From NCBI RefSeq assembly GCF_024298765.1, contig NZ_CP101210.1: DNA of 64,000 nt; one strand, given 5' to 3'. Shown one piece after another: positions 12,162 to 39,289 of this stretch. How positions within the stretch are numbered: the stretch's first letter is position 1; each line of letters begins with the position of its first letter. The notes beneath the pieces were generated by a model. The model was not told the DNA's origin, made no database searches, and worked only from the letters and a program-made list of their open reading frames with translations. Source of the stretch: Escherichia coli (lineage in GTDB: Bacteria; Pseudomonadota; Gammaproteobacteria; Enterobacterales; Enterobacteriaceae). The translations under genes were made by a program, and so were the position numbers.

Positions 12162-12171
12162 GAATAAGAAC

Positions 12172-13508: not shown

Positions 13509-14630
13509 ATGTCAAAAGTCGCTCTCATCACCGGTGTAACCGGACAAGACGGTTCTTACCTGGCAGAGTTTCTGCTGGAAAAAGGTTACGAGGTGCATGG
13601 TATTAAGCGTCGTGCATCGTCATTCAACACCGAGCGCGTGGATCACATTTATCAGGATCCGCACACCTGCAACCCGAAATTCCATCTGCATTATGGCGAC
13701 CTGAGTGATACCTCCAACCTGACACGCATTTTGCGTGAAGTGCAGCCGGATGAAGTTTACAACCTGGGCGCAATGAGCCACGTTGCGGTTTCTTTTGAGT
13801 CACCGGAATATACCGCAGACGTCGATGCGATGGGTACGCTGCGCCTGCTCGAGGCGATCCGCTTCCTCGGTCTGGAAAAGAAAACCCGTTTCTATCAGGC
13901 TTCCACCTCTGAACTGTATGGTCTGGTGCAGGAAATTCCGCAGAAAGAAACCACGCCGTTCTACCCACGCTCTCCGTATGCTGTCGCCAAACTGTACGCC
14001 TACTGGATCACCGTTAACTACCGCGAATCCTACGGCATGTACGCCTGTAACGGTATTCTCTTCAACCATGAATCCCCGCGCCGCGGCGAAACCTTCGTTA
14101 CCCGCAAAATCACCCGCGCAATCGCCAATATCGCCCAGGGGCTGGAGTCGTGCCTGTACCTCGGCAATATGGATTCCCTGCGTGACTGGGGCCACGCCAA
14201 AGACTACGTAAAAATGCAGTGGATGATGCTGCAACAGGAACAGCCGGAAGATTTCGTTATCGCGACCGGCGTTCAGTACTCCGTGCGTCAGTTCGTGGAA
14301 ATGGCAGCGGCACAGCTGGGCATCAAACTGCGCTTTGAAGGCACGGGTGTTGAAGAGAAGGGCATTGTGGTTTCCGTCACCGGGCATGACGCGCCGGGCG
14401 TTAAACCGGGTGATGTGATTATCGCCGTTGATCCGCGTTACTTCCGTCCGGCTGAAGTTGAAACGCTGCTCGGCGACCCGACCAAAGCGCACGAAAAACT
14501 GGGCTGGAAACCGGAAATCACCCTCAGAGAGATGGTGTCTGAAATGGTGGCTAATGACCTCGAAGCGGCGAAAAAACACTCTCTGCTGAAATCTCACGGC
14601 TACGACGTGGCGATCGCGCTGGAGTCATAA
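13509..14630 (+). CDS. gmd: GDP-mannose 4,6-dehydratase (colanic acid copy)
   Basis: 373 aa; Rossmann [10 protein letters not shown]; SDR active-site region. Confidence 0.95.
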
Positions 14631-14632
14631 GC

Positions 14633-15598
14633 ATGAGTAAACAACGCATTTTTATCGCTGGCCATCGTGGGATGGTCGGTTCTGCCATCAGGCGGCAGCT
14701 CAAACAGCGCGGTGATGTGGAACTGGTATTACGCACCCGCGACGAGCTGAACCTGCTGGACAGCCGCGCGGTGCATGATTTCTTTGCCAGCGAACGCATT
14801 GACCAGGTCTATCTGGCGGCGGCGAAAGTGGGCGGCATTGTTGCCAACAACACCTATCCGGCGGATTTCATCTACCAGAACATGATGATTGAGAGCAACA
14901 TCATTCACGCCGCGCATCAGAACGACGTGAACAAACTGCTGTTTCTCGGATCGTCCTGTATCTACCCGAAACTGGCAAAACAGCCGATGGCAGAAAGCGA
15001 GTTATTGCAGGGCACGCTGGAGCCGACCAACGAGCCTTACGCCATTGCCAAAATCGCCGGGATCAAACTGTGCGAATCTTACAACCGCCAGTATGGACGC
15101 GATTACCGCTCAGTCATGCCGACCAACCTGTACGGGCCGCACGACAACTTCCACCCGAGTAACTCGCACGTGATCCCTGCATTGCTGCGTCGCTTCCACG
15201 AGGCGACGGCACAGAATGCGCCGGACGTGGTGGTGTGGGGCAGCGGTACACCGATGCGCGAATTTCTGCACGTTGATGATATGGCAGCGGCGAGCATTCA
15301 TGTGATGGAGCTGGCGCACGAAGTCTGGCAGGAGAACACCCGGCCGATGCTGTCGCACATTAACGTCGGCACGGGCGTTGACTGCACTATCCGTGAGCTG
15401 GCGCAAACCATCGCCAAAGTGGTGGGTTACAAAGGTCGGGTGGTTTTTGATGCCAGCAAACCGGATGGTACGCCGCGCAAACTGCTGGATGTGACGCGCC
15501 TGCATCAGCTTGGCTGGTATCACGAAATCTCACTGGAAGCGGGGCTTGCCAGCACTTACCTGTGGTTCCTTGAGAATCAAGACCGCTTTCGGGGGTAA
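14633..15598 (+). CDS. fcl: GDP-L-fucose synthase (colanic acid copy)
   Basis: 321 aa; N-terminal GHRGMVGSA; immediately after gmd. Confidence 0.95.
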
Positions 15599-16080
15599 TG
15601 ATGTTTTTACGTCAGGAAGACTTTGCCACGGTAGTGCGCTCCACCCCGCTTGTCTCCCTCGACTTTATTGTTGAGAACAGTCGCGGCGAGTTTCTGCTTG
15701 GCAAAAGAACCAACCGCCCGGCGCAGGGTTACTGGTTTGTGCCGGGAGGGCGCGTGCAGAAAGACGAAACGCTGGAAGCCGCATTTGAGCGGCTGACGAT
15801 GGCGGAACTGGGGCTGCGTCTGCCGATAACAGCAGGCCAGTTTTACGGTGTCTGGCAGCACTTTTATGACGATAACTTCTCCGGCACGGATTTCACCACT
15901 CACTATGTGGTGCTCGGTTTTCGCTTCAGAGTAGCGGAAGAAGAACTGTTACTGCCGGATGAGCAGCATGACGATTACCGCTGGCTGACGCCGGACGCAC
16001 TGCTCGCCAGTGACAATGTTCACGCTAACAGCCGCGCCTATTTTCTCGCTGAGAAGCGTGCCGGAGTACCCGGATTATGA
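15598..16080 (+). CDS. gmm: GDP-mannose mannosyl hydrolase (Nudix)
   Basis: 160 aa; synteny after fcl. Confidence 0.9.
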
Positions 16081-17300
16081 AAATACTGGTCTACGGCATT
16101 AACTACTCGCCGGAGTTAACCGGCATCGGCAAATACACCGGAGAAATGGTGGAATGGCTGGCGGCGCAAGGTCATGAGGTGCGGGTTATTACCGCACCGC
16201 CTTACTACCCGCAGTGGCAGGTGGGCGAGAACTATTCCGCCTGGCGCTACAAACGAGAAGAGGGGGCCGCCACGGTGTGGCGCTGCCCGCTGTACGTGCC
16301 AAAACAGCCGAGCACCCTGAAACGCCTGTTGCATCTCGGCAGTTTTGCCGTCAGCAGTTTTTTCCCGTTGATGGCGCAACGTCGCTGGAAGCCGGTTCGC
16401 ATTATCGGCGTGGTGCCAACGCTGTTTTGCACGCCGGGAATGCGCCTGCTGGCGAAACTCTCTGGTGCGCGTACCGTGCTGCATATTCAGGATTACGAAG
16501 TGGACGCCATGCTGGGGCTGGGCCTTGCCGGAAAAGGCAAAGGCGGCAAAGTGGCACAGCTGGCAACGGCGTTCGAACGTAGCGGACTGCATAACGTCGA
16601 TAACGTCTCCACGATTTCGCGTTCGATGATGAATAAAGCCATCGAAAAAGGCGTGGCGGCGGAAAACGTCATCTTCTTCCCCAACTGGTCGGAAATCGCC
16701 CGTTTTCAGCATGTTGCAGACACCGATGTTGATGCCCTTCGTAACCAGCTTGGCCTGCCGGATAACAAAAAAATCATTCTTTACTCCGGCAATATTGGTG
16801 AAAAGCAGGGGCTGGAAAACGTTATTGAAGCTGCCGATCGTCTGCGCGATGAACCGCTGATTTTTGCCATTGTCGGGCAGGGCGGCGGCAAAGCGCGGCT
16901 GGAAAAAATGGCGCAGCAGCGTGGACTGCGCAACATGCAATTTTTCCCGCTGCAATCGTATGACGCTTTACCCGCACTGCTGAAGATGGGCGATTGCCAT
17001 CTGGTGGTGCAAAAACGCGGCGCGGCAGATGCCGTATTGCCGTCGAAACTGACCAATATTCTGGCGGTAGGCGGTAACGCGGTGATTACCGCAGAAGCCC
17101 ACACAGAACTGGGACAGCTTTGCGAAACCTTTCCGGGCATTGCGGTTTGCGTGGAACCGGAATCGGTCGAGGCGCTGGTGGCGGGGATCCGTCAGGCGCT
17201 CCTGCTGCCCAAACACAACACGGTGGCACGTGAATATGCCGAACGCACACTCGATAAAGAGAACGTGTTACGTCAATTTATAAATGATATTCGGGGATAA
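16077..17300 (+). CDS. wcaI: Colanic acid glycosyltransferase
   Basis: 407 aa; GT-B type; synteny. Confidence 0.9.
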
Positions 17301-17302
17301 TT

Positions 17303-18739
17303 ATGGCGCAGTCGAAACTCTATCCAGTTGTGATGGCAGGTGGCTCCGGTAGCCGCTTATGGCCGCTTTCCCGCGTACTTTACCCCAAGCAGTTTTTATG
17401 CCTGAAAGGCGATCTCACCATGCTGCAAACCACCATCTGCCGCCTGAACGGCGTGGAGTGCGAAAGCCCGGTGGTGATTTGCAATGAGCAGCACCGCTTT
17501 ATTGTCGCGGAACAGCTGCGTCAACTGAACAAACTCACCGAGAACATTATTCTCGAACCGGCAGGGCGTAACACTGCACCTGCCATTGCACTGGCGGCGC
17601 TGGCGGCAAAACGTCATAGCCCGGAGAGCGACCCGTTAATGCTGGTGCTGGCGGCGGATCATGTGATTGCCGATGAAGACGCGTTCCGTGCCGCCGTGCG
17701 TAATGCCATGCCGTATGCCGAAGCGGGCAAGCTGGTGACCTTCGGCATTGTGCCGGATCTACCTGAAACCGGATATGGCTATATTCGTCGCGGTGAAGTG
17801 TCGGCGGGTGAGCAGGATACGGTGGCCTTTGAAGTGGCGCAGTTTGTCGAAAAACCGAATCTGGAAACCGCCCAGGCCTATGTGGCAAGCGGCGAATATT
17901 ACTGGAACAGCGGCATGTTCCTGTTCCGCGCCGGACGCTATCTCGAAGAACTGAAAAAATATCGCCCGGATATTCTCGACGCCTGTGAACAAGCGATGAG
18001 CGCCGTCGATCCGGATCTCGATTTTATTCGCGTGGATGAAGAAGCGTTTCTGGCCTGCCCGGAAGAGTCGGTGGATTACGCGGTCATGGAACGTACGGCA
18101 GATGCCGTTGTGGTGCCGATGGATGCGGGCTGGAGCGATGTCGGTTCCTGGTCTTCATTATGGGAGATCAGCGCCCACACCGCCGAGGGCAACGTTTGCC
18201 ACGGTGATGTGATTAATCACAAAACTGAAAACAGCTATGTGTACGCCGAATCTGGCCTGGTCACCACCGTCGGGGTGAAAGATCTGGTAGTGGTGCAGAC
18301 CAAAGATGCGGTGCTGATTGCCGACCGTAACGCGGTGCAGGATGTGAAAAAAGTGGTCGAGCAGATCAAAGCCGATGGTCGCCATGAGCATCGGGTGCAT
18401 CGCGAAGTGTATCGTCCGTGGGGCAAATATGACTCTATCGACGCGGGCGACCGCTACCAGGTGAAACGCATCACCGTGAAACCGGGCGAGGGCTTGTCGG
18501 TACAGATGCACCATCACCGCGCGGAACACTGGGTAGTGGTCGCGGGAACGGCAAAAGTCACCATTGATGGTGATATCAAACTGCTTGGTGAAAACGAGTC
18601 CATTTATATTCCGCTGGGGGCGACGCACTGCCTGGAAAACCCGGGGAAAATTCCGCTCGATTTAATTGAAGTGCGCTCCGGCTCTTATCTCGAAGAGGAT
18701 GATGTGGTGCGCTTCGCGGATCGCTACGGACGGGTGTAA
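17303..18739 (+). CDS. cpsB: Mannose-1-phosphate guanylyltransferase (colanic acid copy)
   Basis: 478 aa; N-terminal nucleotidyltransferase [12 protein letters not shown]; C-terminal cupin domain. Confidence 0.95.
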
Positions 18740-18845
<106 letters not shown>

Positions 18846-18931
18846 AATGCGAAACCGAGATGTAAATAACGACAAAAACAAAATTGGCCGTTTCGGTCAG
18901 GGCCAACTATTGCCTGAAAAAGGGTAACGAC

Positions 18932-20302
18932 ATGAAAAAATTAACCTGCTTTAAAGCCTATGATATTCGCGGGAAATTAGGCGAAGAACTGAATGAAGAT
19001 ATCGCCTGGCGCATTGGTCGCGCCTATGGCGAATTTCTCAAACCGAAAACCATTGTGTTAGGCGGTGATGTCCGTCTCACCAGCCAAACCTTAAAACTGG
19101 CGCTGGCAAAAGGTTTACAGGATGCGGGCGTTGACGTGCTGGATATTGGTATGTCCGGCACCGAAGAGATCTATTTCGCCACGTTCCATCTCGGCGTGGA
19201 TGGCGGCATTGAAGTTACCGCCAGCCATAATCCGATGGATTATAACGGCATGAAGCTGGTTCGCGAGGGGGCTCGCCCGATCAGCGGAGATACCGGACTG
19301 CGCGACGTCCAGCGTCTGGCTGAAGCCAACGACTTTCCTCCCGTCGATGAAACCAAACGCGGTCGCTATCAGCAAATCAACCTGCGTGACGCTTACGTTG
19401 ATCACCTGTTCGGTTATATCAATGTCAAAAACCTCACGCCGCTCAAGCTGGTGATTAACTCCGGGAATGGCGCAGCGGGTCCGGTGGTGGACGCCATTGA
19501 AGCCCGCTTTAAAGCCCTTGGCGCACCCGTGGAATTAATCAAAGTGCACAACACGCCGAACGGCAATTTCCCCAACGGTATTCCTAACCCGCTACTGCCG
19601 GAATGCCGCGACGACACCCGCAATGCGGTCATCAAACACGGCGCGGATATGGGCATTGCCTTTGATGGCGATTTTGACCGCTGCTTCCTGTTTGACGAAA
19701 AAGGGCAGTTTATCGAAGGCTACTACATTGTCGGCCTGCTGGCAGAAGCGTTCCTCGAAAAAAATCCCGGCGCGAAGATCATCCACGATCCACGTCTCTC
19801 CTGGAATACCGTTGATGTGGTGACTGCCGCTGGCGGCACGCCGGTGATGTCGAAAACCGGACACGCCTTTATTAAAGAACGTATGCGCAAGGAAGACGCC
19901 ATCTACGGTGGCGAAATGAGCGCCCACCATTACTTCCGTGATTTCGCTTACTGCGACAGCGGCATGATCCCGTGGCTGCTGGTCGCCGAACTGGTGTGCC
20001 TGAAAGATAAAACGCTGGGCGAACTGGTACGCGACCGGATGGCGGCGTTTCCGGCAAGCGGTGAGATCAACAGCAAACTGGCGCAACCCGTTGAGGCGAT
20101 TAACCGCGTGGAACAGCATTTTAGCCGTGAGGCGCTGGCGGTGGATCGCACCGATGGCATCAGCATGACCTTTGCCGACTGGCGCTTTAACCTGCGCACC
20201 TCCAATACCGAACCGGTGGTGCGCCTGAATGTGGAATCGCGCGGTGATGTGCCGCTGATGGAAGCGCGAACGCGAACTCTGCTGACGTTGCTGAACGAGT
20301 AA
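18932..20302 (+). CDS. cpsG: Phosphomannomutase (colanic acid copy)
   Basis: Start taken at [14 protein letters not shown] (456 aa), not the track start 18884; phosphohexomutase fold with TASHNP. Confidence 0.95.
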
Positions 20303-20312
20303 TGTCATTACT

Positions 20313-20417
20313 TTCCCCCTCACCCTGACGCTCTACTGCCTGCGGAGAGAAGTGAGCACGGAACTTTCTTCTCCCCCTCGCCCCTTTGGGGAGAGGGCCG
20401 GGGTGAGGGGCGAGGCG
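20313..20417. repeat. GC-rich imperfect palindromic element between cpsG and wcaJ
   Basis: CCCCCTCACCC (20316-20326) pairs with GGGTGAGGGG (20401-20410); inner CTCCCCCTCGCCCC / GGGGAGAGGG arms. Confidence 0.5.
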
Positions 20418-20437
20418 ACAATAGAACAGGAACAACG

Positions 20438-21832
20438 ATGACAAATCTAAAAAAGCGCGAGCGAGCGAAAACCAATGCATCGTTAATCTCTATGGTGCAA
20501 CGCTTTTCAGATATCACCATCATGTTTGCCGGACTATGGCTGGTTTGCGAAGTCAGCGGACTGTCATTCCTCTACATGCACCTGTTGGTGGCGCTGATTA
20601 CGCTGGTGGTGTTCCAGATGCTGGGCGGCATCACCGATTTTTATCGCTCATGGCGCGGTGTTCGGGCAGCGACAGAATTTGCCCTGTTGCTACAAAACTG
20701 GACCTTAAGCGTGATTTTCAGCGCCGGACTGGTGGCGTTCAACAATGATTTCGACACGCAACTGAAAATCTGGCTGGCGTGGTATGGGCTGACCAGTATC
20801 GGACTGGTGGTTTGCCGTTCATGTATTCGTATTGGGGCGGGCTGGCTGCGTAATCATGGCTATAACAAGCGCATGGTCGCCGTAGCGGGGGATTTAGCCG
20901 CCGGACAAATGCTGATGGAGAGCTTCCGTAATCAGCCGTGGTTAGGGTTTGAAGTGGTGGGGGTTTACCACGACCCGAAACCGGGCGGCGTTTCTAACGA
21001 CTGGGCGGGCAATCTTCAACAGCTGGTCGAGGACGCGAAAGCGGGCAAGATTCATAACGTCTATATCGCGATGCAAATGTGCGACGGCGCGCGAGTGAAA
21101 AAACTGGTCCATCAATTGGCGGACACCACCTGTTCGGTGTTGCTGATCCCCGATGTCTTTACCTTCAACATTCTCCATTCACGTCTTGAAGAGATGAACG
21201 GCGTTCCGGTGGTGCCGCTTTACGACACGCCGCTTTCCGGGGTTAACCGCCTGCTCAAACGTGCGGAAGACATTGTGCTGGCGACGCTTATTCTGCTGCT
21301 GATCTCCCCGGTGCTGTGCTGTATTGCGCTGGCGGTGAAACTCAGTTCACCAGGGCCGGTTATTTTCCGCCAGACTCGCTATGGCATGGATGGCAAACCG
21401 ATCAAAGTGTGGAAGTTCCGTTCGATGAAAGTGATGGAGAACGACAAAGTGGTGACTCAGGCGACGCAGAACGATCCGCGCGTCACCAAAGTGGGGAACT
21501 TTCTGCGCCGCACCTCGCTGGATGAACTGCCGCAGTTTATCAATGTGCTGACCGGGGGGATGTCGATTGTGGGGCCACGTCCGCACGCAGTAGCGCATAA
21601 CGAACAGTATCGCCAGCTCATTGAAGGCTACATGCTGCGCCATAAAGTGAAACCGGGCATTACTGGCTGGGCGCAGATTAACGGCTGGCGCGGCGAAACC
21701 GACACGCTGGAGAAAATGGAAAAACGCGTCGAGTTCGACCTTGAGTACATCCGCGAATGGAGCGTCTGGTTCGATATCAAAATCGTTTTCCTGACGGTGT
21801 TCAAAGGTTTCGTTAACAAAGCGGCATATTGA
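20438..21832 (+). CDS. wcaJ: Undecaprenyl-phosphate glucose-1-phosphate transferase
   Basis: 464 aa; N-terminal TM segments and C-terminal sugar-transferase domain. Confidence 0.9.
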   Translation: MTNLKKRERAKTNASLISMVQRFSDITIMFAGLWLVCEVSGLSFLYMHLLVALITLVVFQMLGGITDFYRSWRGVRAATEFALLLQNWTLSVIFSAGLVAFNNDFDTQLKIWLAWYGLTSIGLVVCRSCIRIGAGWLRNHGYNKRMVAVAGDLAAGQMLMESFRNQPWLGFEVVGVYHDPKPGGVSNDWAGNLQQLVEDAKAGKIHNVYIAMQMCDGARVKKLVHQLADTTCSVLLIPDVFTFNILHSRLEEMNGVPVVPLYDTPLSGVNRLLKRAEDIVLATLILLLISPVLCCIALAVKLSSPGPVIFRQTRYGMDGKPIKVWKFRSMKVMENDKVVTQATQNDPRVTKVGNFLRRTSLDELPQFINVLTGGMSIVGPRPHAVAHNEQYRQLIEGYMLRHKVKPGITGWAQINGWRGETDTLEKMEKRVEFDLEYIREWSVWFDIKIVFLTVFKGFVNKAAY

Positions 21833-21833
21833 T

Positions 21834-23312
21834 ATGAGCTTACGTGAAAAAACCATCAGCGGCGCGAAGTGGTCGGCGATTGCCACGGTGATCATCATCG
21901 GCCTCGGGCTGGTGCAGATGACCGTGCTGGCGCGGATTATCGACAACCACCAGTTCGGCCTGCTGACTGTGTCGCTGGTGATTATCGCGCTGGCAGATAC
22001 GCTTTCTGACTTTGGTATCGCTAACTCGATTATTCAGCGAAAAGAAATCAGTCACCTTGAACTCACCACGTTGTACTGGCTGAACGTCGGGCTGGGGATC
22101 GTGGTGTGCGTGGCGGTGTTTTTGTTGAGTGATCTCATCGGCGACGTGCTGAATAACCCGGACCTGGCACCGTTGATTAAAACATTGTCGCTGGCGTTTG
22201 TGGTGATCCCCCACGGGCAACAGTTCCGCGCGTTGATGCAGAAGGAGCTGGAGTTCAACAAAATCGGCATGATCGAAACCAGCGCGGTACTGGCGGGCTT
22301 CACTTTTACGGTGGTTAGCGCCCATTTCTGGCCGCTGGCGATGACCGCGATCCTCGGTTATCTGGTCAATAGTGCGGTAAGAACGCTGCTGTTTGGCTAC
22401 TTTGGTCGCAAAATTTATCGCCCCGGTCTGCATTTCTCGCTGGCGTCGGTGGCACCGAACTTACGCTTTGGTGCCTGGCTGACGGCGGACAGCATCATCA
22501 ACTATCTCAATACCAACCTTTCAACGCTGGTGCTGGCGCGTATTCTCGGCGCGGGCGTGGCAGGGGGATACAACCTGGCGTACAACGTGGCCGTTGTGCC
22601 ACCGATGAAGCTGAACCCAATCATCACCCGCGTGTTGTTTCCGGCATTCGCCAAAATTCAGGACGATACCGAAAAGCTGCGCGTTAACTTCTACAAGCTG
22701 CTGTCGGTAGTGGGGATTATCAACTTTCCGGCGCTGCTGGGGCTGATGGTGGTGTCGAATAACTTTGTACCGCTGGTCTTTGGTGAGAAGTGGAACAGCA
22801 TTATTCCGGTGCTGCAATTGCTGTGTGTGGTGGGTCTGCTGCGTTCCGTAGGTAACCCGATTGGTTCGCTGCTGATGGCGAAAGCGCGGGTCGATATCAG
22901 CTTTAAATTCAACGTATTCAAAACCTTTCTGTTTATTCCGGCGATTGTTATTGGTGGGCAGATGGCGGGCGCAATTGGCGTCACGCTCGGCTTCCTGTTG
23001 GTACAGATTATCAACACCATTCTGAGTTACTTCGTGATGATTAAACCGGTTCTTGGTTCCAGTTATCGCCAGTACATCCTGAGTTTGTGGCTGCCGTTTT
23101 ATCTCTCGTTGCCGACGCTGGTGGTCAGTTATGCGCTGGGCATTGTGCTGAAAGGGCAACTGGCGCTGGGGATGCTGCTGGCGGTGCAAATAGCCGCGGG
23201 CGTGCTGGCGTTTGTGGTGATGATTGTGCTGTCGCGCCATCCGCTGGTGGTGGAAGTGAAGCGTCAGTTTTGTCGCAGCGAAAAAATGAAAATGCTTTTA
23301 CGGGCGGGGTGA
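21834..23312 (+). CDS. wzxC: Colanic acid repeat-unit flippase
   Basis: 492 aa polytopic membrane protein; synteny. Confidence 0.9.
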   Translation: MSLREKTISGAKWSAIATVIIIGLGLVQMTVLARIIDNHQFGLLTVSLVIIALADTLSDFGIANSIIQRKEISHLELTTLYWLNVGLGIVVCVAVFLLSDLIGDVLNNPDLAPLIKTLSLAFVVIPHGQQFRALMQKELEFNKIGMIETSAVLAGFTFTVVSAHFWPLAMTAILGYLVNSAVRTLLFGYFGRKIYRPGLHFSLASVAPNLRFGAWLTADSIINYLNTNLSTLVLARILGAGVAGGYNLAYNVAVVPPMKLNPIITRVLFPAFAKIQDDTEKLRVNFYKLLSVVGIINFPALLGLMVVSNNFVPLVFGEKWNSIIPVLQLLCVVGLLRSVGNPIGSLLMAKARVDISFKFNVFKTFLFIPAIVIGGQMAGAIGVTLGFLLVQIINTILSYFVMIKPVLGSSYRQYILSLWLPFYLSLPTLVVSYALGIVLKGQLALGMLLAVQIAAGVLAFVVMIVLSRHPLVVEVKRQFCRSEKMKMLLRAG

Positions 23313-23329
23313 GTTGCTGTTTTCGGTTC

Positions 23330-23535
23330 CGACAACGGTTGCCGGATGCGGCGTAAAACGCCTTATCCATCCTACGGTTCCGTGCTCGGGACCTGTAGGC
23401 CTGATAAGACGCGTCAGCGTCGCATCAGGCACTGAATGCCGGATGCGGCGTGAACGCCTTATCCGGCCTACGGTTCTGTGCTCGGGTCTTGTAGGCCTGA
23501 TAAGACGCGTCAGCGTCGCATCAGGCAAAAAGCGG
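23330..23535. repeat. BIME: about four REP palindromic units in alternating orientation, with an internal ~96-bp tandem duplication
   Basis: Alternating GCCGGATGCGGCGT(A/G)AACGCCTTATCC and GGCCTGATAAGACGCGTCAGCGTCGCATCAGGC units; the long track ORF 23314-24867 reads through them artefactually. Confidence 0.8.
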
Positions 23536-23586
23536 CAACGAACAAAACAAACACAGCCCACCTGGCATCAAATTTATGAGGAAAAA

Positions 23587-26084: not shown

Positions 26085-26094
26085 AGGAGAACGC

Positions 26095-27489: not shown

Positions 27490-27646
27490 ATTTGCGACCA
27501 TTCATAAACTTACTGGATATAATGTTCTAAAAGATTATAATCCTCACACTAACTGTTAAAGCTGGGGCTGGGCAGCATTGACTACTCAGGGAAGGTACTC
27601 ATCTTTATCTTGTGTTTCTTACGTAACAACCAGACTAAAGTGATTT

Positions 27647-28642: not shown

Positions 28643-28884
28643 TGCAGACGAGTCAGAGAAAAAAGGACTAGGTTGGACTACGATTATTCGGAAAGAGGTA
28701 CTGATTAAATTATCAGTATGTGGATTTCCGAGTAATCCGAGTAACCCAGATGCTGATGGTGTGTAGTGTTATCGTAAGGTTTAAGCAAAGTTATGCGGAA
28801 CTAAGCTTTGGTATATAGCCATAACGTTTGGCTAACCTATGGCAATAATTTACGCACTATCAGCCACTTAGAGGTAGGAAAAGA

Positions 28885-29778
28885 ATGACGAATTTAAAAG
28901 CAGTTATACCGGTAGCAGGTCTTGGGATGCATATGTTGCCTGCCACTAAGGCGATTCCCAAAGAGATGCTACCGATCGTCGACAAGCCAATGATTCAGTA
29001 CATTGTTGACGAGATTGTGGCTGCAGGGATCAAAGAAATCCTCCTGGTAACTCATGCGTCCAAGAACGCGGTCGAAAACCACTTCGACACCTCTTATGAA
29101 TTAGAATCTCTCCTTGAACAGCGCGTGAAGCGTCAGCTGCTGGCGGAAGTGCAGTCCATCTGTCCGCCTGGCGTGACCATTATGAACGTGCGTCAGGGTG
29201 AACCTTTAGGTTTGGGCCACTCCATTTTATGTGCACGACCCGCCATTGGTGACAACCCATTTGTCGTGGTGCTGCCAGACGTTGTGATCGATGACGCCAG
29301 CGCCGACCCGCTGCGCTACAACCTTGCTGCCATGATTGCGCGCTTCAACGAAACGGGCCGCAGCCAGGTGCTGGCAAAACGTATGCCGGGTGACCTCTCT
29401 GAATACTCCGTCATTCAGACCAAAGAACCGCTGGACCGTGAAGGCAAAGTCAGCCGCATTGTTGAATTTATCGAAAAACCGGATCAGCCGCAGACGCTGG
29501 ACTCAGACATCATGGCCGTAGGTCGTTATGTGCTTTCTGCTGATATTTGGCCGGAACTGGAACGTACTCAGCCTGGTGCATGGGGGCGTATTCAGCTTAC
29601 TGATGCTATTGCCGAACTGGCGAAAAAACAGTCCGTTGATGCCATGCTGATGACTGGAGACAGCTACGACTGCGGTAAAAAAATGGGCTATATGCAGGCG
29701 TTTGTGAAGTATGGGCTGCGCAACCTGAAAGAAGGGGCGAAGTTCCGCAAAGGTATTGAGAAGGTGTTAAGTGAATAA
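28885..29778 (+). CDS. galF: UTP-glucose-1-phosphate uridylyltransferase paralogue (GalU-like regulatory subunit)
   Basis: 297 aa; nucleotidyltransferase motif [25 protein letters not shown]. Confidence 0.95.
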
Positions 29779-30011
29779 AAATTGATCATCCATATATGGT
29801 GGATTGAATAAAAATAGAACTGCAGTGAACATTCAAAAGAAAAGATGATTACGTTATAAGAATGTTCCTGTCTTTTATTGAAAGTATTTAATAACAATAA
29901 GTTACAGCATGTATCGCTCGTACATAGATTTTCCTTGTATTTGACTTCGTTTGATTAGACTATTGGAAAATAGTGAAAAGTATTAAATAATTAGTACCTA
30001 TGATTCATTTT

Positions 30012-30050
30012 CAGTGAGTTGGTAACTGTTAAGCCAAGGGCGGTAGCGTG
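30012..30050 (+). promoter_or_regulatory. JUMPstart element with ops (GGCGGTAGCGTG, 30039-30050) in O-antigen operon leader
   Basis: cagtgagttggtaactgttaagccaagggcggtagcgtg; same 39-bp architecture as the wza leader copy. Confidence 0.85.
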
Positions 30051-30085
30051 TGTTTTGATCCTACCCACGTAATATGGACACAGGC

Positions 30086-30841
30086 CTAAGCGAGGTTCTG
30101 GTTTTCAAATTGTTCCGGACTGAGGCCGCCACACCAACTGTGCCGCCGCCACCGATTGTAATCACATTCGATATAATTAAACACCGTTGCCCGCATTATT
30201 TCCCGGCTGATAAAGTGTTCTCCATGGATACATTCCACTTTCAGCGAATGAAAGAAGCTTTCCACGCAGGCATTATCGTAGCAGCAACCTTTTGCGCTCA
30301 TACTTCCACGCAGATTATGCCGCTTCAGTTGCGCCGTCATGCGTGGCGACATTGACCAGCCAATAACGGCACGTGACCACAGGTCAATGACCACTGCCAG
30401 ATACAGCCAGCCTTCATCTGTACGTAAGTACGTGATGTCTCCTGCCCACTTCTGGTTCGGGCCACTGGCGTAAAAATCCTGCTCCAACAGATTTTCTGAC
30501 ACAGGCAGGCCGTGTGCGCGGTAGCTGACCGGGCTGAACTTCCGGGAGGCCTTTGCCCTCAGTCCCTGACGGCGCAGGCTTGCCGCCACGGTTTTTACGT
30601 TAAAGGGGTAACCCTGAGCACGCAGTTCATCCGTCAGGCGTGGGGCACCGTAACGCTGTTTTGACCGGGTAAAAGCCGCGAGGACAACGCTGTCGCAGTG
30701 TTGGCGGAACTGCTGACGCGTGCTTATCCTTGTCCGCCGCTGACACCACGTATACCAGCCGCTGCGGGCCACCCGGAGCACGCGGCACATTGCTTTGATG
30801 CTGAACTCAGCCTGATGTTTTTCAATAAAGACATACTTCAT
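30086..30841 (-). pseudogene. insF: IS3 OrfB transposase catalytic domain, apparently truncated by in-frame internal deletion (251 aa versus recalled 288 aa)
   Basis: [19 protein letters not shown]...; junction PRMTAQL|KRHNLRG at about 30326/30327; recalled intact OrfB has about 37 extra residues here including HTDRGGQY. Confidence 0.7.
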
Positions 30842-31146
30842 TTCAGGCGCTTCGCGAAGTATGTCGCGGCCTTTTGGAGGATAGCCAGCTCTTCATCCCG
30901 TTCTGCCAGCTGGCGTTTGAGACGTGCAATCTCGGTAGACATCTCCAGTTCACGTTCAGAAGACGTCTGCTGATTTTGCTGTTTACTGCGCCAGTTGTAG
31001 AGCTGTGATTCATACAGGCTGAGTTCACGGGCTGCGGCAGTAACACCGATGCGTTCAGCAAGCTTCAGGGCTTCACTGCGAAATTCAGGCGAATGCTGTT
31101 TACGGGGTTTTTTACTGGTTGATACTGTTTTTGTCATGTGAGTCAC
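30838..31146 (-). CDS. insE: IS3 OrfA (transposase N-terminal HTH protein)
   Basis: 102-aa ORF ...[50 protein letters not shown]...; leucine-zipper-like C-terminus. Confidence 0.9.
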
Positions 31147-31237
31147 CTCTGACTGAGAGTTTACTCACTTAGCCGCGTGTCCACTATTGCTGGGTAAGAT
31201 CATTTTTCTCTCAATCCTCATGATAAAGGAGGTTTAT

Positions 31238-32257
31238 ATGGTGATTTTCGTAACAGGCGGTGCAGGATATATTGGATCCCATACCATACTTGAGTTACTT
31301 AATAATGGTCATGATGCCGTTTCGATAGATAATTTTGCCAATTCCTCTATAGAATCATTAAAAAGAGTAGAGCAAATAACTAATAAGAAAATTATTTCTT
31401 ATCAAGGTGATATCCGTGATAAAAATCTACTTGATGAGATTTTTTCAAGACATCATATCGATGCTGTAATTCATTTTGCATCGTTAAAATCTGTAGGTGA
31501 GTCAAAGTTAAAGCCCTTAGAGTATTATTCTAATAATGTTGGTGGAACTTTAGTATTACTTGAATGCATGAAGAGATATAACATTAATAAAATGATATTT
31601 AGCTCTTCTGCTACTGTTTATGGGAATAACAGTATCCCTCCCCATACGGAAGATAGACGAATTGGTGAAACTACAAACCCATATGGGACATCGAAGTTTA
31701 TAATAGAAATGATTTTGAGTGATTATTGTGATAGCGATAATAATAAATCAGTAATTGCACTACGTTATTTTAATCCAATCGGAGCACATAAGTCCGGGAT
31801 GATTGGTGAAAATCCTAACGGGATTCCTAATAATCTGGTTCCTTATATATCTAAAGTTGCACAAAATCAACTTCCTGTATTAAATATTTATGGCAACGAT
31901 TATCCAACTAAAGATGGTACAGGAGTAAGAGACTATATACATGTCTGTGATTTGGCTAAAGGGCATGTTAAAGCATTAGAATATATGTTTTTAAATGATG
32001 TCAATTATGAGGCTTTTAATTTAGGTACTGGTCAAGGTTATTCTGTTTTAGAGATTGTAAAAATGTTTGAGATAGTCACTAAAAAGAGTATACCTTTTGC
32101 TATTTGTAATAGACGTGAGGGGGATGTTGCTGAGTCATGGGCGTCTGCTGATTTGGCACATGAAAAGCTTTCCTGGAAAGCGGAAAAAAAATTGAAAGAA
32201 ATGATCGAAGATGTATGGCGTTGGCAAACAAAAAATCCAAATGGATATAAAAAATAA
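31238..32257 (+). CDS. UDP-hexose 4-epimerase (GalE/Gne family), first O-antigen gene
   Basis: Start at ATG 31238 with AGGAGG RBS (track ORF begins 31187, overlapping the IS end); 339 aa; TGGAGYIGSHT Rossmann, NPYGTSK, YxxxK; AT-rich. Confidence 0.85.
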   Translation: MVIFVTGGAGYIGSHTILELLNNGHDAVSIDNFANSSIESLKRVEQITNKKIISYQGDIRDKNLLDEIFSRHHIDAVIHFASLKSVGESKLKPLEYYSNNVGGTLVLLECMKRYNINKMIFSSSATVYGNNSIPPHTEDRRIGETTNPYGTSKFIIEMILSDYCDSDNNKSVIALRYFNPIGAHKSGMIGENPNGIPNNLVPYISKVAQNQLPVLNIYGNDYPTKDGTGVRDYIHVCDLAKGHVKALEYMFLNDVNYEAFNLGTGQGYSVLEIVKMFEIVTKKSIPFAICNRREGDVAESWASADLAHEKLSWKAEKKLKEMIEDVWRWQTKNPNGYKK

Positions 32258-32275
32258 TTTTTGGAATTTTGATAT

Positions 32276-33292
32276 ATGAAAAATGTTGGTTTTATTGTTA
32301 CAAAATCAGAAATTGGTGGTGCACAAACATGGGTAAATGAAATATCTAACCTTATTAAAGAGGAATGTAATATATTTCTTATTACATCTGAAGAAGGATG
32401 GCTCACACATAAAGATGTCTTTGCTGGAGTTTTTGTCATACCAGGTATTAAAAAATATTTTGACTTCCTTACATTGTTTAAATTGAGAAAAATTTTAAAA
32501 GAAAATAATATTTCAACATTAATAGCAAGTTCTGCTAATGCCGGAGTTTATGCTAGGTTAGTTCGATTACTAGTCGACTTTAAATGTATTTATGTTTCGC
32601 ATGGATGGTCTTGTTTATATAATGGTGGTCGACTAAAATCAATTTTTTGTATTGTGGAGAAATACCTTTCTTTATTAACTGATGTTATATGGTGTGTTTC
32701 CAAAAGTGATGAAAAAAAAGCAATTGAGAAAATTGGTATAAAAGAAACAAAGATAATCACAGTATCGAATTCAGTGCCTCAGATGCCAAGATGTAATAAT
32801 AAACCACTCCAGTATAAAGTTCTGTTTGTTGGTAGGTTAACACACCCTAAGCGCCCCGAATTGTTAGCGAATGTAATATCGAAAAAGCCCCAGTATAGCC
32901 TCCATGTCGTAGGAGGGGGGGAAAGGTTAGAATCATTGAAGAAACAATTCAGTGAATGTGAAAATATTCATTTTATGGGTGAGGTCAATAATTTTTATAA
33001 CTATCATGAGTATGATTTATTTTCACTGATATCCGATAGTGAAGGTTTGCCTATGTCAGGCCTTGAGGCTCACACAGCTGCAATACCACTCCTTTTAAGT
33101 GATGTGGGCGGATGTTTTGAATTAATTGAGGGTAATGGGGTACTTGTGGAAAATACTGAAGACGACATTGGATATAAATTGGATAAAATATTCGATGACT
33201 ATGAAAATTATCGGGAACAGGCAATTCGTGCCTCCGGAAAATTTGTTATCGAGAACTATGCTTCAGCATATAAAAGCATTATTTTAGGTTGA
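32276..33292 (+). CDS. Glycosyltransferase, GT4 family (retaining, GT-B)
   Basis: 338 aa; EX7E-type motif SEGLPMSGLEAHTAAIPLL; AT-rich. Confidence 0.75.
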   Translation: MKNVGFIVTKSEIGGAQTWVNEISNLIKEECNIFLITSEEGWLTHKDVFAGVFVIPGIKKYFDFLTLFKLRKILKENNISTLIASSANAGVYARLVRLLVDFKCIYVSHGWSCLYNGGRLKSIFCIVEKYLSLLTDVIWCVSKSDEKKAIEKIGIKETKIITVSNSVPQMPRCNNKPLQYKVLFVGRLTHPKRPELLANVISKKPQYSLHVVGGGERLESLKKQFSECENIHFMGEVNNFYNYHEYDLFSLISDSEGLPMSGLEAHTAAIPLLLSDVGGCFELIEGNGVLVENTEDDIGYKLDKIFDDYENYREQAIRASGKFVIENYASAYKSIILG

Positions 33293-33318
33293 GTATTTTT
33301 TAGAACAGGAAATGTAAA

Positions 33319-34440
33319 ATGGCTAAAGTCGCTCTCATTACTGGCATAACCGGACAAGACGGTTCTTACCTGGCAGAGTTTCTGCTGGAAAAAGGTTACG
33401 AGGTGCATGGTATTAAGCGTCGTGCATCGTCATTCAACACCGAGCGCGTGGATCACATTTATCAGGATCCGCACACCTGCAACCCGAAATTCCATCTGCA
33501 TTATGGCGACCTGAGTGATACCTCCAACCTGACGCGCATTTTGTGTGAAGTGCAGCCGGATGAAGTGTACAACCTTGGCGCAATGAGTCACGTTGCGGTC
33601 TCTTTTGAGTCACCGGAATATACCGCAGACGTTGATGCGATGGGTACGCTGCGCCTGCTCGAGGCGATCCGCTTCCTCGGTCTGGAAAAGAAAACCCGTT
33701 TCTATCAGGCTTCCACTTCTGAACTGTACGGTCTGGTGCAGGAGATTCCGCAGAAAGAGACCACGCCGTTCTACCCACGCTCTCCGTATGCAGTCGCCAA
33801 ACTGTACGCCTACTGGATCACCGTTAACTACCGCGAATCCTACGGCATGTACGCCTGTAACGGTATTCTCTTTAACCATGAATCCCCGCGCCGCGGCGAA
33901 ACCTTCGTTACCCGCAAAATCACCCGCGCAATCGCCAACATCGCACAGGGGCTGGAGTCGTGCCTGTACCTCGGCAATATGGATTCCCTGCGTGACTGGG
34001 GCCACGCCAAAGACTACGTAAAAATGCAGTGGATGATGCTGCAACAGGAACAGCCGGAAGATTTCGTCATCGCTACCGGCGTTCAGTATTCCGTGCGTCA
34101 GTTCGTGGAAATGGCGGCAGAGCGAGTCGGAATCAAACTGCGTTTTGAAGGCGCAGGTGTAGATGAGAAAGGGATAGTGGTTTCTGTTAATGGTGAGGAT
34201 GCTCCAGCAGTTAAACCTGGAGATGTAATCGTTAAGGTTGACCCGCGTTACTTCCGTCCGGCTGAAGTTGAAACACTGCTCGGCGACCCGACCAAAGCGC
34301 ACGAAAAACTGGGCTGGAAACCGGAAATCACCCTCAGAGAGATGGTGTCTGAAATGGTGGCTAATGACCTCGAAGCGGCGAAAAAACACTCTCTGCTGAA
34401 ATCTCACGGCTACGACGTGGCGATCGCGCTGGAGTCATAA
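33319..34440 (+). CDS. gmd: GDP-mannose 4,6-dehydratase (O-antigen copy)
   Basis: 373 aa; near-identical to colanic acid gmd apart from a divergent patch at about 34110-34255. Confidence 0.95.
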
Positions 34441-34442
34441 GC

Positions 34443-35408
34443 ATGAGTAAACAACGCATTTTTATCGCTGGCCATCGTGGGATGGTCGGTTCTGCCATCA
34501 GGCGGCAGCTCAAACAGCGCGGTGATGTGGAACTGGTATTACGCACCCGCGACGAGCTGAACCTGCTGGACAGCCGCGCGGTGCATGATTTCTTTGCCAG
34601 CGAACGCATTGACCAGGTCTATCTGGCGGCGGCGAAAGTGGGCGGCATTGTTGCCAACAACACCTATCCGGCGGATTTCATCTACCAGAACATGATGATT
34701 GAGAGCAACATCATTCACGCCGCGCATCAGAACGACGTGAACAAACTGCTGTTTCTCGGATCGTCCTGTATCTACCCGAAACTGGCAAAACAGCCGATGG
34801 CAGAAAGCGAGTTATTGCAGGGCACGCTGGAGCCGACCAACGAGCCTTACGCCATTGCCAAAATCGCCGGGATCAAACTGTGCGAATCTTACAACCGCCA
34901 GTATGGACGCGATTACCGCTCAGTCATGCCGACCAACCTGTACGGGCCGCACGACAACTTCCACCCGAGTAACTCGCACGTGATCCCTGCATTGCTGCGT
35001 CGCTTCCACGAGGCGACGGCACAGAATGCGCCGGACGTGGTGGTGTGGGGCAGCGGTACACCGATGCGCGAATTTCTGCACGTTGATGATATGGCAGCGG
35101 CGAGCATTCATGTGATGGAGCTGGCGCACGAAGTCTGGCAGGAGAACACCCGGCCGATGCTGTCGCACATTAACGTCGGCACGGGCGTTGACTGCACTAT
35201 CCGTGAGCTGGCGCAAACCATCGCCAAAGTGGTGGGTTACAAAGGTCGGGTGGTTTTTGATGCCAGCAAACCGGATGGTACGCCGCGCAAACTGCTGGAT
35301 GTGACGCGCCTGCATCAGCTTGGCTGGTATCACGAAATCTCACTGGAAGCGGGGCTTGCCAGCACTTACCTGTGGTTCCTTGAGAATCAAGACCGCTTTC
35401 GGGGGTAA
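34443..35408 (+). CDS. fcl: GDP-L-fucose synthase (O-antigen copy)
   Basis: 321 aa; nucleotide-identical to colanic acid fcl across the whole gene by line-by-line comparison. Confidence 0.95.
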
Positions 35409-35911
35409 TGATGTTTTTACGTCAGGAAGACTTTGCCACGGTAGTGCGCTCCACCCCGCTTGTCTCCCTCGACTTTATTGTTGAGAACAGTCGCGGCGAG
35501 TTTCTGCTTGGCAAAAGAACCAACCGCCCGGCGCAGGGTTACTGGTTTGTGCCGGGAGGGCGCGTGCAGAAAGACGAAACGCTGGAAGCCGCATTTGAGC
35601 GGCTGACGCTTGCGGAACTGGGGTTGCGTCTGCCGATAACAGCAGGCCAGTTTTACGGTGTCTGGCAGCACTTTTATGACGATAACTTCTCCGGCTCGGA
35701 TTTCACCACTCACTATGTGGTGCTCGGTTTTCGCATCAGAGTAGCGGAAGAAAAGCTGTTACTGCCGGATGAGCAGCATGACGATTACCGCTGGCTGACG
35801 CCGGACGCGTTGCTCGCCAGTGACAATGTTCACGCTAACAGCCGAGCTTATTTTAATCATGATCCAAGAGCTGTTATTGGTTTAGATAAAAAGGATGTCA
35901 AAAATGTCTGA
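35408..35911 (+). CDS. gmm: GDP-mannose mannosyl hydrolase (O-antigen copy, divergent C-terminus)
   Basis: 167 aa; first ~145 aa near-identical to colanic gmm, then diverges after ...NSRAYF; 3' end overlaps manC. Confidence 0.85.
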
Positions 35912-37352
35912 TGTACCGTTGATTGCTGTTGTAATGGCTGGTGGTACGGGTAGCCGTCTTTGGCCCCTCTCAAGAGAGCACTATCCGAAGCAATTTCTGC
36001 AATTATCAGGTGAGAATACTTTATTACAGTCAACCTTATTACGACTATCCCCGCTTTCTTGCGAAACTCCATTAGTAATAACAAATGAGCAACATCGCTT
36101 TGTGGTTGCAGAACAATTACGTCAAATTGATCAGTTAAGAGATAATATTATTCTTGAGCCATGTGGAAGAAATACGGCTCCCGCCATAGCTCTTTCAGCA
36201 TTTACAGCTTTGAAGCGTAATGAACAACAGGATCCTATTTTGTTGATTCTCGCAGCTGACCATATTATAAGCAAAGCGGATGTTTTTTGTGACGCTATTC
36301 AAAAATCGAAAACTGTAGCTGAACAGGGGAATATTGTAACCTTTGGGATTATACCTGAATATGCGGAAACAGGTTATGGTTATATAAAAAAAGGAGATCC
36401 TTTTAAAATTTTACCAAATATTACTGATGATAAGTTTTATCATGTCCAACAATTTATTGAAAAACCTAACCATTCGACGGCAGAAGAGTATGTTTCCACA
36501 GGAGAATATCTCTGGAATAGTGGAATGTTTATGTTTAAAGCATCAGTATATTTAGAGGAATTGAAAAAGCACAGGCCTGATATATACGAAATCTGTGAGC
36601 AGACAGCTTCATTATCCTATAACGATCTTGATTTCATACGATTGCCTAAACATATTTTCCAAGATTGTCCGTCGGAATCAATTGATTTTGCGGTTATGGA
36701 AAAAACAAAAAATTGCATTGTTCGTCCAGTAGACATCGGGTGGAGTGATGTAGGCTCTTGGCATTCTTTGTGGGATATTAGTGATAAAACGCAGGATGGA
36801 GATGTCTGTAAAGGTGATATTCTAACTTATAACACTAAAAACAATTATATATATTGTGAATCAGCCCTAGTGGCTGCTGTAGGTGTAGAAGATATAGTTA
36901 TTGTTCAAACAAAAGATGCTATTCTCGTGTCCAAAAAAACTGAGGTTCAGGATGTAAAAAAAATAGTAGAAATGCTTAAGGAACATGAGCGCTCAGAGTA
37001 TATATCGCATCGAGAGGAGTTTCGGCCTTGGGGAAAATTTGATGCGATAGATCAGGGAGAACGATATAAAGTTAAAAAGATAGTTGTGAAACCCGGCGAA
37101 GGACTATCCTTACGAATGCACCATCATCGTTCTGAGCATTGGATTGTTCTTTCCGGCACAGCAAAAGTAACTTTAAACGATAAAACAGTATTGCTTGCTG
37201 CAAATGAATCAATCTACATTCCTCTAGGAGCAACGTATAGTCTTGAAAATCCAGGAATAATCCCTCTGAATCTTATTGAGGTTAGTTCAGGCGATTATTT
37301 AGGTGAGGATGATATTGTACGGCAAAAAGAACGCTACAGAATAGATGACTAA
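35895..37352 (+). CDS. manC: Mannose-1-phosphate guanylyltransferase (O-antigen copy, divergent and AT-rich)
   Basis: 485 aa; [12 protein letters not shown] nucleotidyltransferase motif; clearly diverged from cpsB in protein and composition. Confidence 0.9.
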
Positions 37353-37355
37353 TAT

Positions 37356-38735
37356 ATGAAAAAATTAACCTGCTTTAAAGCCTATGATATTCGCGGGAAA
37401 TTAGGTGAAGAACTGAATGAAGATATCGCCTGGCGCATTGGTCGCGCCTATGGCGAATTTCTCAAACCGAAAACCATTGTGTTAGGCGGTGATGTCCGCC
37501 TCACCAGCGAAACCTTAAAACTGGCGCTGGCAAAAGGTTTGCAGGATGCGGGCGTCGATGTGCTGGATATTGGTATGTCCGGCACCGAAGAGATCTATTT
37601 CGCCACGTTCCATCTCGGCGTGGATGGCGGCATTGAAGTTACCGCCAGTCATAATCCGATGGATTACAACGGCATGAAACTGGTGCGCGAAGGGGCTCGC
37701 CCGATCAGCGGCGATACCGGACTGCGCGATGTCCAGCGTCTGGCAGAAGCCAACGACTTTCCTCCCGTTGATGAAACCAAACGCGGTCGCTATCAGCAAA
37801 TCAACCTGCGTGACGCTTACGTTGATCACCTGTTCGGTTATATCAGTGTCAAAAACCTTACGCCGCTCAAGCTGGTGATTAACTCCGGGAACGGCGCGGC
37901 GGGTCCGGTGGTGGACGCCATTGAAGCCCGCTTTAAAGCCCTCGGCGCACCGGTGGAATTAATCAAAGTACACAACACGCCGGACGGCAATTTCCCCAAC
38001 GGTATTCCTAACCCGTTGCTGCCGGAATGCCGCGACGACACCCGTCATGCGGTCATCAAACACGGCGCGGATATGGGCATTGCCTTTGATGGCGATTTTG
38101 ACCGCTGTTTCCTGTTTGACGAAAAAGGGCAGTTTATCGAGGGCTACTACATTGTCGGCTTGCTGGCACAAGCGTTCCTCGAAAAAAATCCCGGCGCGAA
38201 GATCATCCACGATCCACGTCTCTCCTGGAACACCGTTGATGTGGTGACTGCCGCAGGCGGCACCCCGGTAATGTCGAAAACCGGACACGCCTTTATTAAA
38301 GAACGGATGCGCAAGGAAGACGCCATCTACGGTGGCGAAATGAGCGCCCACCATTACTTCCGTGATTTTGCTTACTGCGACAGCGGCATGATCCCGTGGC
38401 TGCTGGTCGCCGAACTGGTGTGTCTGAAAGGAAAAACGCTGGGCGAACTGGTGCGCGACCGGATGGCAGCATTTCCGGCAAGCGGTGAGATCAACAGCAA
38501 ACTGGCGGACCCCGTTGAGGCGATTAACCGCGTGGAACAGCATTTTAGCCGTGAGGCGCTGGCGGTGGATCGCACCGATGGCATCAGTATGACCTTTGCC
38601 GACTGGCGCTTTAACCTGCGCTCCTCCAACACCGAACCGGTGGTGCGCCTGAATGTGGAATCGCGCGGTAATATAGCATTAATGAATGAACAGGTTGAAT
38701 TTATTACAAAATTTTTAAACGGTGATGGTTTATGA
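37356..38735 (+). CDS. manB: Phosphomannomutase (O-antigen copy)
   Basis: 459 aa; near-identical to cpsG in the stretches compared except the last ~20 codons. Confidence 0.95.
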
Positions 38736-39289
38736 GAATATTAAAAATTATTATAAGTGTATTGTTGTTTATAAAAAAGAAAAGAAAAAAAATACCGGAC
38801 TCAGCAATAATAAACTTAACAAGTCATGTGGATAAACATTCAGTAATTGGAAAGTGTTGTTATATAGGGAAAAATGTATATATAACTAAAAGTATCATTG
38901 GGAATTACACATCTATTGCAAATAATGTCTCAATTGGTCAAGGTGAACATAAGGTTGATGCAGTTAGTACAAGTTCGATGTTCTACGATAATGAATTCGA
39001 AGATTTAACACAAAACGATTGTATTATAGGTAATGATGTGTGGCTCGGTACAGGAGTTACTGTATTACGAGGGGTAAGAATTGGTGATGGTGCTATTATT
39101 GGTGCTAATGCCGTTGTCACAAAAAATATTCCAGATTATTGTATTGCGGTAGGAGTACCTGCGAAAGTAATCAAAAGAAGATTACCAGTAAATGTTACTG
39201 AAAAAATAAAAGAGACTAAATGGTGGAATGATGAATATGAAGTGGCGAAGGATAAAATTATTTGCTTAACAAATGAATTAAAGTTATGA
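38732..39289 (+). CDS. O-acetyltransferase, hexapeptide-repeat (LbH) family
   Basis: 185 aa; repeats such as [31 protein letters not shown]; 4-bp overlap with manB; AT-rich. Confidence 0.75.

Follow-up and report, generated by a model that had tools for sequence, protein, structure and literature searches.

The 64,000-nucleotide stretch of Escherichia coli DNA analysed here (contig NZ_CP101210.1 of assembly GCF_024298765.1; hereafter the window) carries two pairs of long direct repeats, formed by genes that occur once in the wca (colanic-acid) cluster at 4.5–27.5 kb and again in the O-antigen cluster at 31.2–44.4 kb. The longer pair, gmd–fcl–gmm (R1), is a mosaic whose wca copy contains a gene-conversion tract, and the junction expected of a deletion between the two R1 copies is present in four deposited E. 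coli genomes. From these sequence comparisons we consider it very likely that the fucose genes of the two clusters recombine with one another, exchanging sequence by conversion and in some strains deleting the interval between them.

Self-BLAST of the window places same-orientation repeats where the first-pass annotation, made from the raw sequence, had put them. R1 is 2.54 kb long (2539 aligned columns, 97.05% identity, 69 mismatches, 2 gaps), its copies lying 19,810 bp apart on one replicon. R2, formed by cpsG and its O-locus paralogue manB, spans 1317 bp (96.28% identity, 49 mismatches, 0 gaps) with a copy spacing of 18,424 bp. The repeats begin exactly at the gmd and cpsG/manB start codons and end just short of the gmm and manB stop codons; the manC paralogues between the blocks share ~64% identity and fall outside the repeats. 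The features concerned are listed below, with support from NCBIfam models, the RefSeq annotation of the collinear O128 genome CP52E and, in places, G+C content (GC).

13509–16044, + strand: R1, wca copy, comprising gmd (13509–14630), fcl (14633–15598) and most of gmm (15598–16080); self-BLAST, NCBIfam, CP52E annotation.
33319–35854, + strand: R1, O-locus copy, comprising gmd (33319–34440), fcl (34443–35408) and most of gmm (35408–35911); self-BLAST, NCBIfam, CP52E annotation, GC.
18932–20248, + strand: R2, wca copy, cpsG (18932–20302) minus its last 54 bp; self-BLAST, NF011943.
37356–38672, + strand: R2, O-locus copy, manB (37356–38735) minus its low-GC 3′ tail; self-BLAST, NF011943, GC.
17303–18739, + strand: cpsB, the wca manC, ~64% identical to the O-locus manC; a locus marker and no recombination substrate.
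35895–37352, + strand: O-locus manC, GC 37.5%; the O-side junction marker, also used to count genomes with this architecture.
14299–14468, + strand: divergent patch within the 3′ portion of gmd, ~76% identical to 34109–34278; GC 48.8 vs 57.1%, not homogenised in any examined genome.

The earlier description of the repeats as near-identical requires qualification at finer scale. R1 is a mosaic in which a 1333-bp tract without any difference (14466–15798, equivalent to 34276–35608) directly follows the divergent patch (gmd offsets 791–960, only ~76% identity), the remainder differing at 1–6 positions per 100 bp. Mismatches in R2 are spread evenly and leave a longest perfect run of 92 bp. Recombination in E. 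coli has a minimal processing segment of ~25–30 bp, and the uninterrupted identity of both repeats is well above it. It is also mismatch-limited, making diverged repeats poorer substrates; R2 (3.7% divergence, perfect tracts of at most 92 bp) should therefore be a much poorer substrate than R1, because it has no long perfect tracts.

Conversion within R1 is revealed by comparing 11–21 kb of the window with TUM18780 (O124/O164), a strain without an O-locus copy. The window wca sequence is near-identical to this reference (34 substitutions in 10 kb), and 23 of the 34 lie inside 14466–15798 (binomial P = 4.7e-13), against a background of ~1 difference per kb in the rest of these 10 kb. At every one of these tract sites (23/23) the window wca base equals that of its own O-locus copy, so the O copy was the donor and the wca copy the recipient. 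The O-locus allele is common to O128 genomes, being 99.8% identical to the O copy of CP52E and present also in E41, one of the deletion strains below. Judged from the diagnostic sites, the wca fcl-region segment replaced by the O-locus copy measures at least 971 bp (14702–15672) and at most 1333 bp.

14466–15798, + strand: conversion tract (O copy into wca copy), 100% identical to 34276–35608, minimum span 14702–15672; diagnostic sites and comparison with TUM18780.

The tract means that the R1 copies have recombined in the lineage of the window. Homogenisation of fcl also recurs elsewhere: identity between the two copies of the segment in one genome is 100% both in the window and in EPEC1 (O127, a derivative of E2348/69) and 99.9% in RIVM_C036569 (O86), and these homogenised segments are only 97–98% identical to other genomes. 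The copies are not homogenised in CP52E (98.3%) or AW1.7 (96.0%). By these identities, the process is recurrent gene conversion, that is, concerted evolution of the fcl copies, in three lineages.

Could the repeats simply descend from an old duplication or capture of wca genes and now be inert, the 1333-bp identity reflecting chance retention or an assembly-polishing artefact? Such an account draws on the fact that both copies are intact genes under purifying selection, and that in none of the comparisons is any segment more conserved than fcl. We find it highly unlikely, since all the tract differences to TUM18780 match the O copy over so sparse a background, and fcl copies group by genome in three independent lineages and not in CP52E or AW1.7; a mismatch-free run of 1333 bp would itself be very improbable at ~3% flanking divergence.

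The comparison with TUM18780 shows separately that the wca cluster is itself mosaic: 8.4–11 kb and 21–29.8 kb differ by 2–4% from this strain, a pattern implying allelic-exchange breakpoints near 11.0 and 21.0 kb. The cpsG–wcaJ intergenic region (20250–20500) has 93 differences in 250 bp relative to CP52E and is identical to TUM18780; the annotated gap is 135 bp in TUM18780 and 54 bp in CP52E, suggesting an intergenic element in only some wca alleles.

Crossover between the R1 copies would remove the interval below, whose content the first-pass annotation gave as wcaI through galF, the IS3 and the first two O-antigen genes. The CP52E annotation agrees, placing in it wcaI, cpsB, cpsG, wcaJ, wzxC, wcaK, wcaL, wcaM, the gene for an undecaprenyl-pyrophosphate-linked N-acetylglucosamine (UndPP-GlcNAc) 4-epimerase, galF, an IS3-family element, a galE-like gene, a family 4 (GT4) glycosyltransferase gene and one R1 copy.

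16045–35854, + strand: segment (19,810 bp) that an R1 x R1 crossover would remove; CP52E annotation; its equivalent is absent from four deletion records.

The first-pass annotation had suggested looking for such a deletion in related genomes, and for R1 it is found there. We surveyed 5426 complete E. coli genomes with a junction query running wcaE–wcaF–gmd–fcl–gmm–manC(O), of which intact genomes can cover at most 75%; four (4/5426) cover it at 100% in one collinear piece. In the RefSeq annotation of the four hits, the O-specific genes come after wcaF–gmd–fcl–gmm–manC(O)–manB(O), and the genes from wcaI to the GT4 gene are missing. With the O-type manC family, found in 134 genomes, as denominator, the frequency is 4/134, and 2/22 among O128 genomes; a denominator of 293 genomes (at least 80% coverage of 13201–38200) was discarded because joined pieces made it ambiguous. 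Each hybrid R1 contains a single switch from wca to O markers, and the four crossover points all differ.

E41 (NZ_CP069707.1, assembly GCF_016889485.1): O128, pig, China; crossover between window positions 14466 and 15798, with the window and CP52E as references.
OkiPb01675 (NZ_AP042478.1, assembly GCF_055393375.1): O128, cattle, Japan; crossover at about gmd offsets 952–1088, with AW1.7 as (imperfect) reference.
E2348/69 (NZ_CP059840.2): O127:H6, human; crossover in a 110-bp interval in gmd, with EPEC1 as reference.
Isolate 3702594 (NZ_CM182088.1, assembly GCF_059428025.1): O86, human; crossover at gmd offsets 334–383 (50 bp), with RIVM_C036569 as reference.

Together with the conversion tract, these single-switch hybrids support, for R1, the earlier proposal that the repeats act as recombination substrates. 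In E41 all markers are wca-type through 14465 and O-type from 15799 on, so that the crossover lies within the tract that is identical in the window. The E2348/69 record switches just as cleanly relative to EPEC1 (22/22 markers wca-type, then 47/47 O-type, with 0 new mutations and flanks otherwise identical), and lacks ~18.4 kb present in EPEC1, from wcaI through the first two O127 genes (locus extract 10505–13097). This record, NZ_CP059840.2 of assembly GCF_014117345.2, has served as a mapping reference, as stated in a passage of PMC11481537.

AW1.7 (O128ac:H12) is usable as a reference for OkiPb01675, but the 5′ end of the O128ac O cluster differs: in the AW1.7 extract (21930–25660) there is no galE-like gene and another GT4 gene (1122 nt) is present. 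Its gmd (1125 nt) and fcl are more divergent, the block being only 93.9% identical to the strain's own wca copy, and the O128 subgroups therefore differ in the quality of the recombination substrate that they carry. For O86, strain S1 (H25) was set aside as reference on proving to be O90/O127, and RIVM_C036569 was taken instead. Annotation gives the O86 wzy a frameshift and an internal stop in isolate 3702594 and RIVM_C036569 alike, a lineage feature or an annotation issue; since the intact genome carries the same pseudogene annotation, post-deletion decay of wzy was ruled out.

An insertion sequence (IS) or illegitimate recombination as the source of the deletions was rejected, the junctions being clean homologous hybrids. 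In the window and CP52E the interval concerned does contain an IS3-family element, located between galF and the O cluster. Yet all four junctions fall within the homologous block, the hybrid gmd–fcl–gmm that remains is intact, in frame and free of IS sequence, indels and filler, and the site of the element is empty in intact genomes of the O127 and O86 parental types; an IS-mediated origin is accordingly extremely improbable.

A more serious alternative is misassembly, in which a repeat–segment–repeat arrangement is resolved as one repeat and the 18–20 kb interstitial segment is dropped, so that no real deletion was observed. This layout is a classic source of collapse, the risk was raised in the first-pass annotation and the caveat applies equally to the four deletion records; the repeats contain perfect tracts of up to 1.3–1.5 kb, and a literature search by accession found no publication describing the four deletions. 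The word 'colanic' does not occur in the mBio paper PMC11481537, whose text was otherwise not searched for the deletion. Against collapse, the records come from four separate submissions and three serogroups with different switch points, and two of the switches fall in identity intervals of 50 and 110 bp despite a tract of more than 1.3 kb just downstream. All four chromosomes are closed and circular, and typical long reads far exceed the 2.5-kb length of the repeat.

E41 provides further arguments. A search of its whole chromosome found no place for cpsG–wcaJ, and its remaining O region differs from the window by ~6 single-nucleotide polymorphisms in 8.6 kb, with O genes intact and free of homopolymer-indel noise. 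In its wzzB (locus extract 42854–43831), position 38 is a nonsense codon, which neither the window nor CP52E has; this single observation would fit relaxed selection on chain-length control after a deletion with O-antigen loss. Overall, misassembly seems unlikely to us as a general explanation, and at least most of the four records are likely to reflect real deletions.

Several points weigh against the account of recombining repeats as a whole. The four deletions come from deposited assemblies, which are open to the collapse artefact, and the crossover in OkiPb01675 is approximate, given the imperfect reference and a few out-of-pattern markers. Of the four crossovers, two map to short stretches of identity (50 and 110 bp) rather than to the identical tract, which exceeds 1.3 kb, a pattern at odds with a simple length-proportional model. 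The first-pass annotation had expected either repeat pair to remove or duplicate about 19–20 kb, and only the R1 deletion has been recovered. No genome covers more than 70% of an R2 deletion junction built with O128 flanks (this covers the O128 context only, not O86 or O127 flanks), and tandem-duplication junctions occur in 0/5426 genomes for R1 and likewise in 0/5426 for R2. Because no duplication junction was found, amplification remains purely theoretical. Tandem segmental duplications are unstable and seldom captured in assemblies.

The O-locus copies themselves carry signs of earlier exchange. They form islands of 52–57% GC among O-cluster genes of 29–37%, and the 3′ tails just outside the repeats drop to 31.6% (O-locus gmm) and 25.4% (O-locus manB). 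The O-locus manB shares 96.3% identity with the resident cpsG, within the range separating cpsG alleles of different strains (95.6–97.4%). These GC islands with low-GC tails, and a manB inside cpsG allelic diversity, lead us to infer that wca-type sequence has replaced the greater part of the O-locus gmd, fcl, gmm and manB, sparing the native tails and a single remnant patch. In the divergent gmd patch the O-locus copies of O128ab, O127/O90 and O86 are 96–100% alike and only 74–79% identical to every wca copy; these ~170 bp appear to be what is left of the ancestral O-locus gmd.

A mechanism consistent with these data can be proposed. Both clusters require GDP-L-fucose, and each accordingly has its own gmd–fcl–gmm and manC–manB. 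Overwriting of the O-locus gmd, fcl, gmm and manB by wca-type sequence would have created same-orientation blocks 18–20 kb apart, which would continue to exchange sequence by homologous recombination, presumably RecA-dependent. In the lineage of the window, the O copy replaced ~1.0–1.33 kb of the wca fcl region, which gave the perfect 1333-bp tract. R1 x R1 recombination, whether by unequal sister exchange, intramolecular crossover or single-strand annealing, would leave one in-frame hybrid gmd–fcl–gmm and excise wcaI through the first two O-cluster genes, joining the 5′ half of the wca operon to gmd/fcl/gmm–manC(O)–manB(O) and the remaining O genes. Colanic acid would no longer be made by such a product, because wcaJ (the initiating transferase), wzxC, wcaI and wcaK–M are gone. 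O-antigen synthesis would probably be lost or altered too, with the UndPP-GlcNAc 4-epimerase gene, galF, the galE-like gene and the GT4 glycosyltransferase missing. As wzx and wzy are retained, sequence-based serotyping would still call the serogroup.

The gene assignments behind this account rest on NCBIfam equivalog and subfamily models with curated cut-offs, and all ten products, counting both copies, score above them: gmd (TIGR01472, 587 and 589 bits; cut-off 415), fcl (NF047922, 550 bits each; cut-off 500), gmm (NF011963, 326 and 313 bits; cut-off 146), manC (TIGR01479, 811 and 754 bits; cut-off 373) and cpsG/manB (NF011943, 1053 and 1035 bits; cut-off 801). In CP52E the wca order is annotated as wza–wzb–wzc–wcaA–F–gmd–fcl–gmm–wcaI–cpsB–cpsG–wcaJ–wzxC–wcaK–L–M; the window cluster is collinear with it at 97–98% identity and has the expected gene order, and the closest complete genomes to the window reach only ~98% across wca. 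The same annotation continues after wcaM with the UndPP-GlcNAc 4-epimerase gene, galF, the IS3-family element, a galE-like gene and the GT4 glycosyltransferase, then gmd–fcl–gmm–manC–manB, an acetyltransferase, wzx, an alpha-1,2-fucosyltransferase, two glycosyltransferases and wzy, and lists next a galE-like gene, gnd, ugd and wzzB.

The serogroup-specific part (38700–44400) is 99.2–99.9% identical to 22 RefSeq complete E. coli genomes, among which wzx carries an O128-family annotation in 22/22 and wzy in 21/22, the exception being E41, where wzy is annotated as an EpsG family protein. By this match the O-antigen cluster of the window is O128.

38732–44356, + strand: O128-specific genes (acetyltransferase, wzx, alpha-1,2-fucosyltransferase, two glycosyltransferases, wzy), 99.2–99.9% identical to 22 RefSeq genomes.
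30057–31202, − strand: IS3-family element between galF and the first O-cluster gene; boundaries by comparison with strain S1, and the same site annotated in CP52E (IS3-family transposase, programmed frameshift).

The IS3-family element (~1.15 kb; orfA 30838–31146, orfB 30086–30841) has a 4-bp overlap at its insertion site, suggesting a target-site duplication. CP52E has an element at the same site, whereas none is present there in the O127, O86 and O128ac genomes. Canonical IS3 is longer (~1.26 kb), so the element in the window may be truncated; it may also separate the O-cluster genes from the upstream promoter/JUMPStart region. Two galE-like genes (31227–31983 and 44828–45582) flank the O128 cluster and form a third, far more divergent direct repeat (65.8% identity over ~780 bp), between which recombination is unlikely. 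Palindromic units of the repetitive extragenic palindromic/bacterial interspersed mosaic element (REP/BIME) type (GCCGGATGCGGCGTGAACGCCTTATCC...) lie at 18736–18850, 23340–23528, 8347–8395 and 2079–2120, in the cpsB–cpsG and wzxC–wcaK intergenic regions and elsewhere; they are small, dispersed and unrelated to R1 or R2.

Deletion and conversion between GDP-mannose-pathway paralogues of the wca and O clusters are already established. A passage of PMC7685785 citing Jensen and Reeves (2004) describes a deletion between manB genes in the O14 type strain. There, as here, paralogous GDP-mannose-pathway genes of the two clusters serve as direct repeats and a crossover removes the interval. The O14 event corresponds to the R2 pair of the window, whereas the events described here use R1 and not manB, occur in O128, O127 and O86, and keep the 3′ part of the O cluster. 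Mosaic manB genes are said to have been described in Salmonella enterica by Jensen and Reeves in 2001.

In E. coli O157, the O-locus manB has been replaced or converted by the wca cpsG (Samuel et al., in the passage of Iguchi et al. 2011 that cites them, PMC3158064), a published picture with which the wca-type overwriting proposed here agrees. Both cases involve non-reciprocal exchange, with an O copy more than 95% identical to cpsG among low-GC, divergent neighbours; unlike in O157, the conversion in the window ran from the O copy to the wca copy and in fcl, and fcl homogenisation recurs in three lineages. Generic RecA-mediated deletion (between rrn operons, IS copies or rhs elements) likewise uses same-orientation homology, here of 1.3–2.5 kb, and keeps one hybrid copy. 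The repeats here differ in being functional paralogues in adjacent surface-polysaccharide operons, so that a single event would disable both polymers, and in that their copies are 3–4% divergent except in conversion-renewed tracts.

What this analysis adds is the R1 (gmd–fcl–gmm) deletion in O128, O127 and O86 records (one of them an E2348/69 reference record), a conversion with a resolved direction (O locus to wca) and, in three lineages, repeated homogenisation of the fcl segment. A prediction made from raw sequence alone has been borne out in public genome records. Users of NZ_CP059840.2 should know of its missing segment, be it a stock variant or a misassembly. A bolder proposal is that recurrent wca/O fcl conversion renews kilobase-long identity in O128, O127/O90 and O86, sustaining a comparatively high rate of one-step deletion and making deletion a recurrent, selectable switch for surface-polysaccharide loss. 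We regard this as quite unlikely; if true, the switch would be selectable, for example under phage, serum or laboratory passage, and the widely used E2348/69 reference assembly GCF_014117345.2 would be such a variant.

The two adjacent polysaccharide loci offer a clean case of concerted evolution, one that extends a known phenomenon and opens no new one. A single event can cost strains with this architecture ~18–20 kb, together with their ability to make colanic acid and probably O antigen, which would yield O-untypeable or rough isolates still reported as O128, O127 or O86 by wzx/wzy polymerase chain reaction or in-silico serotyping.

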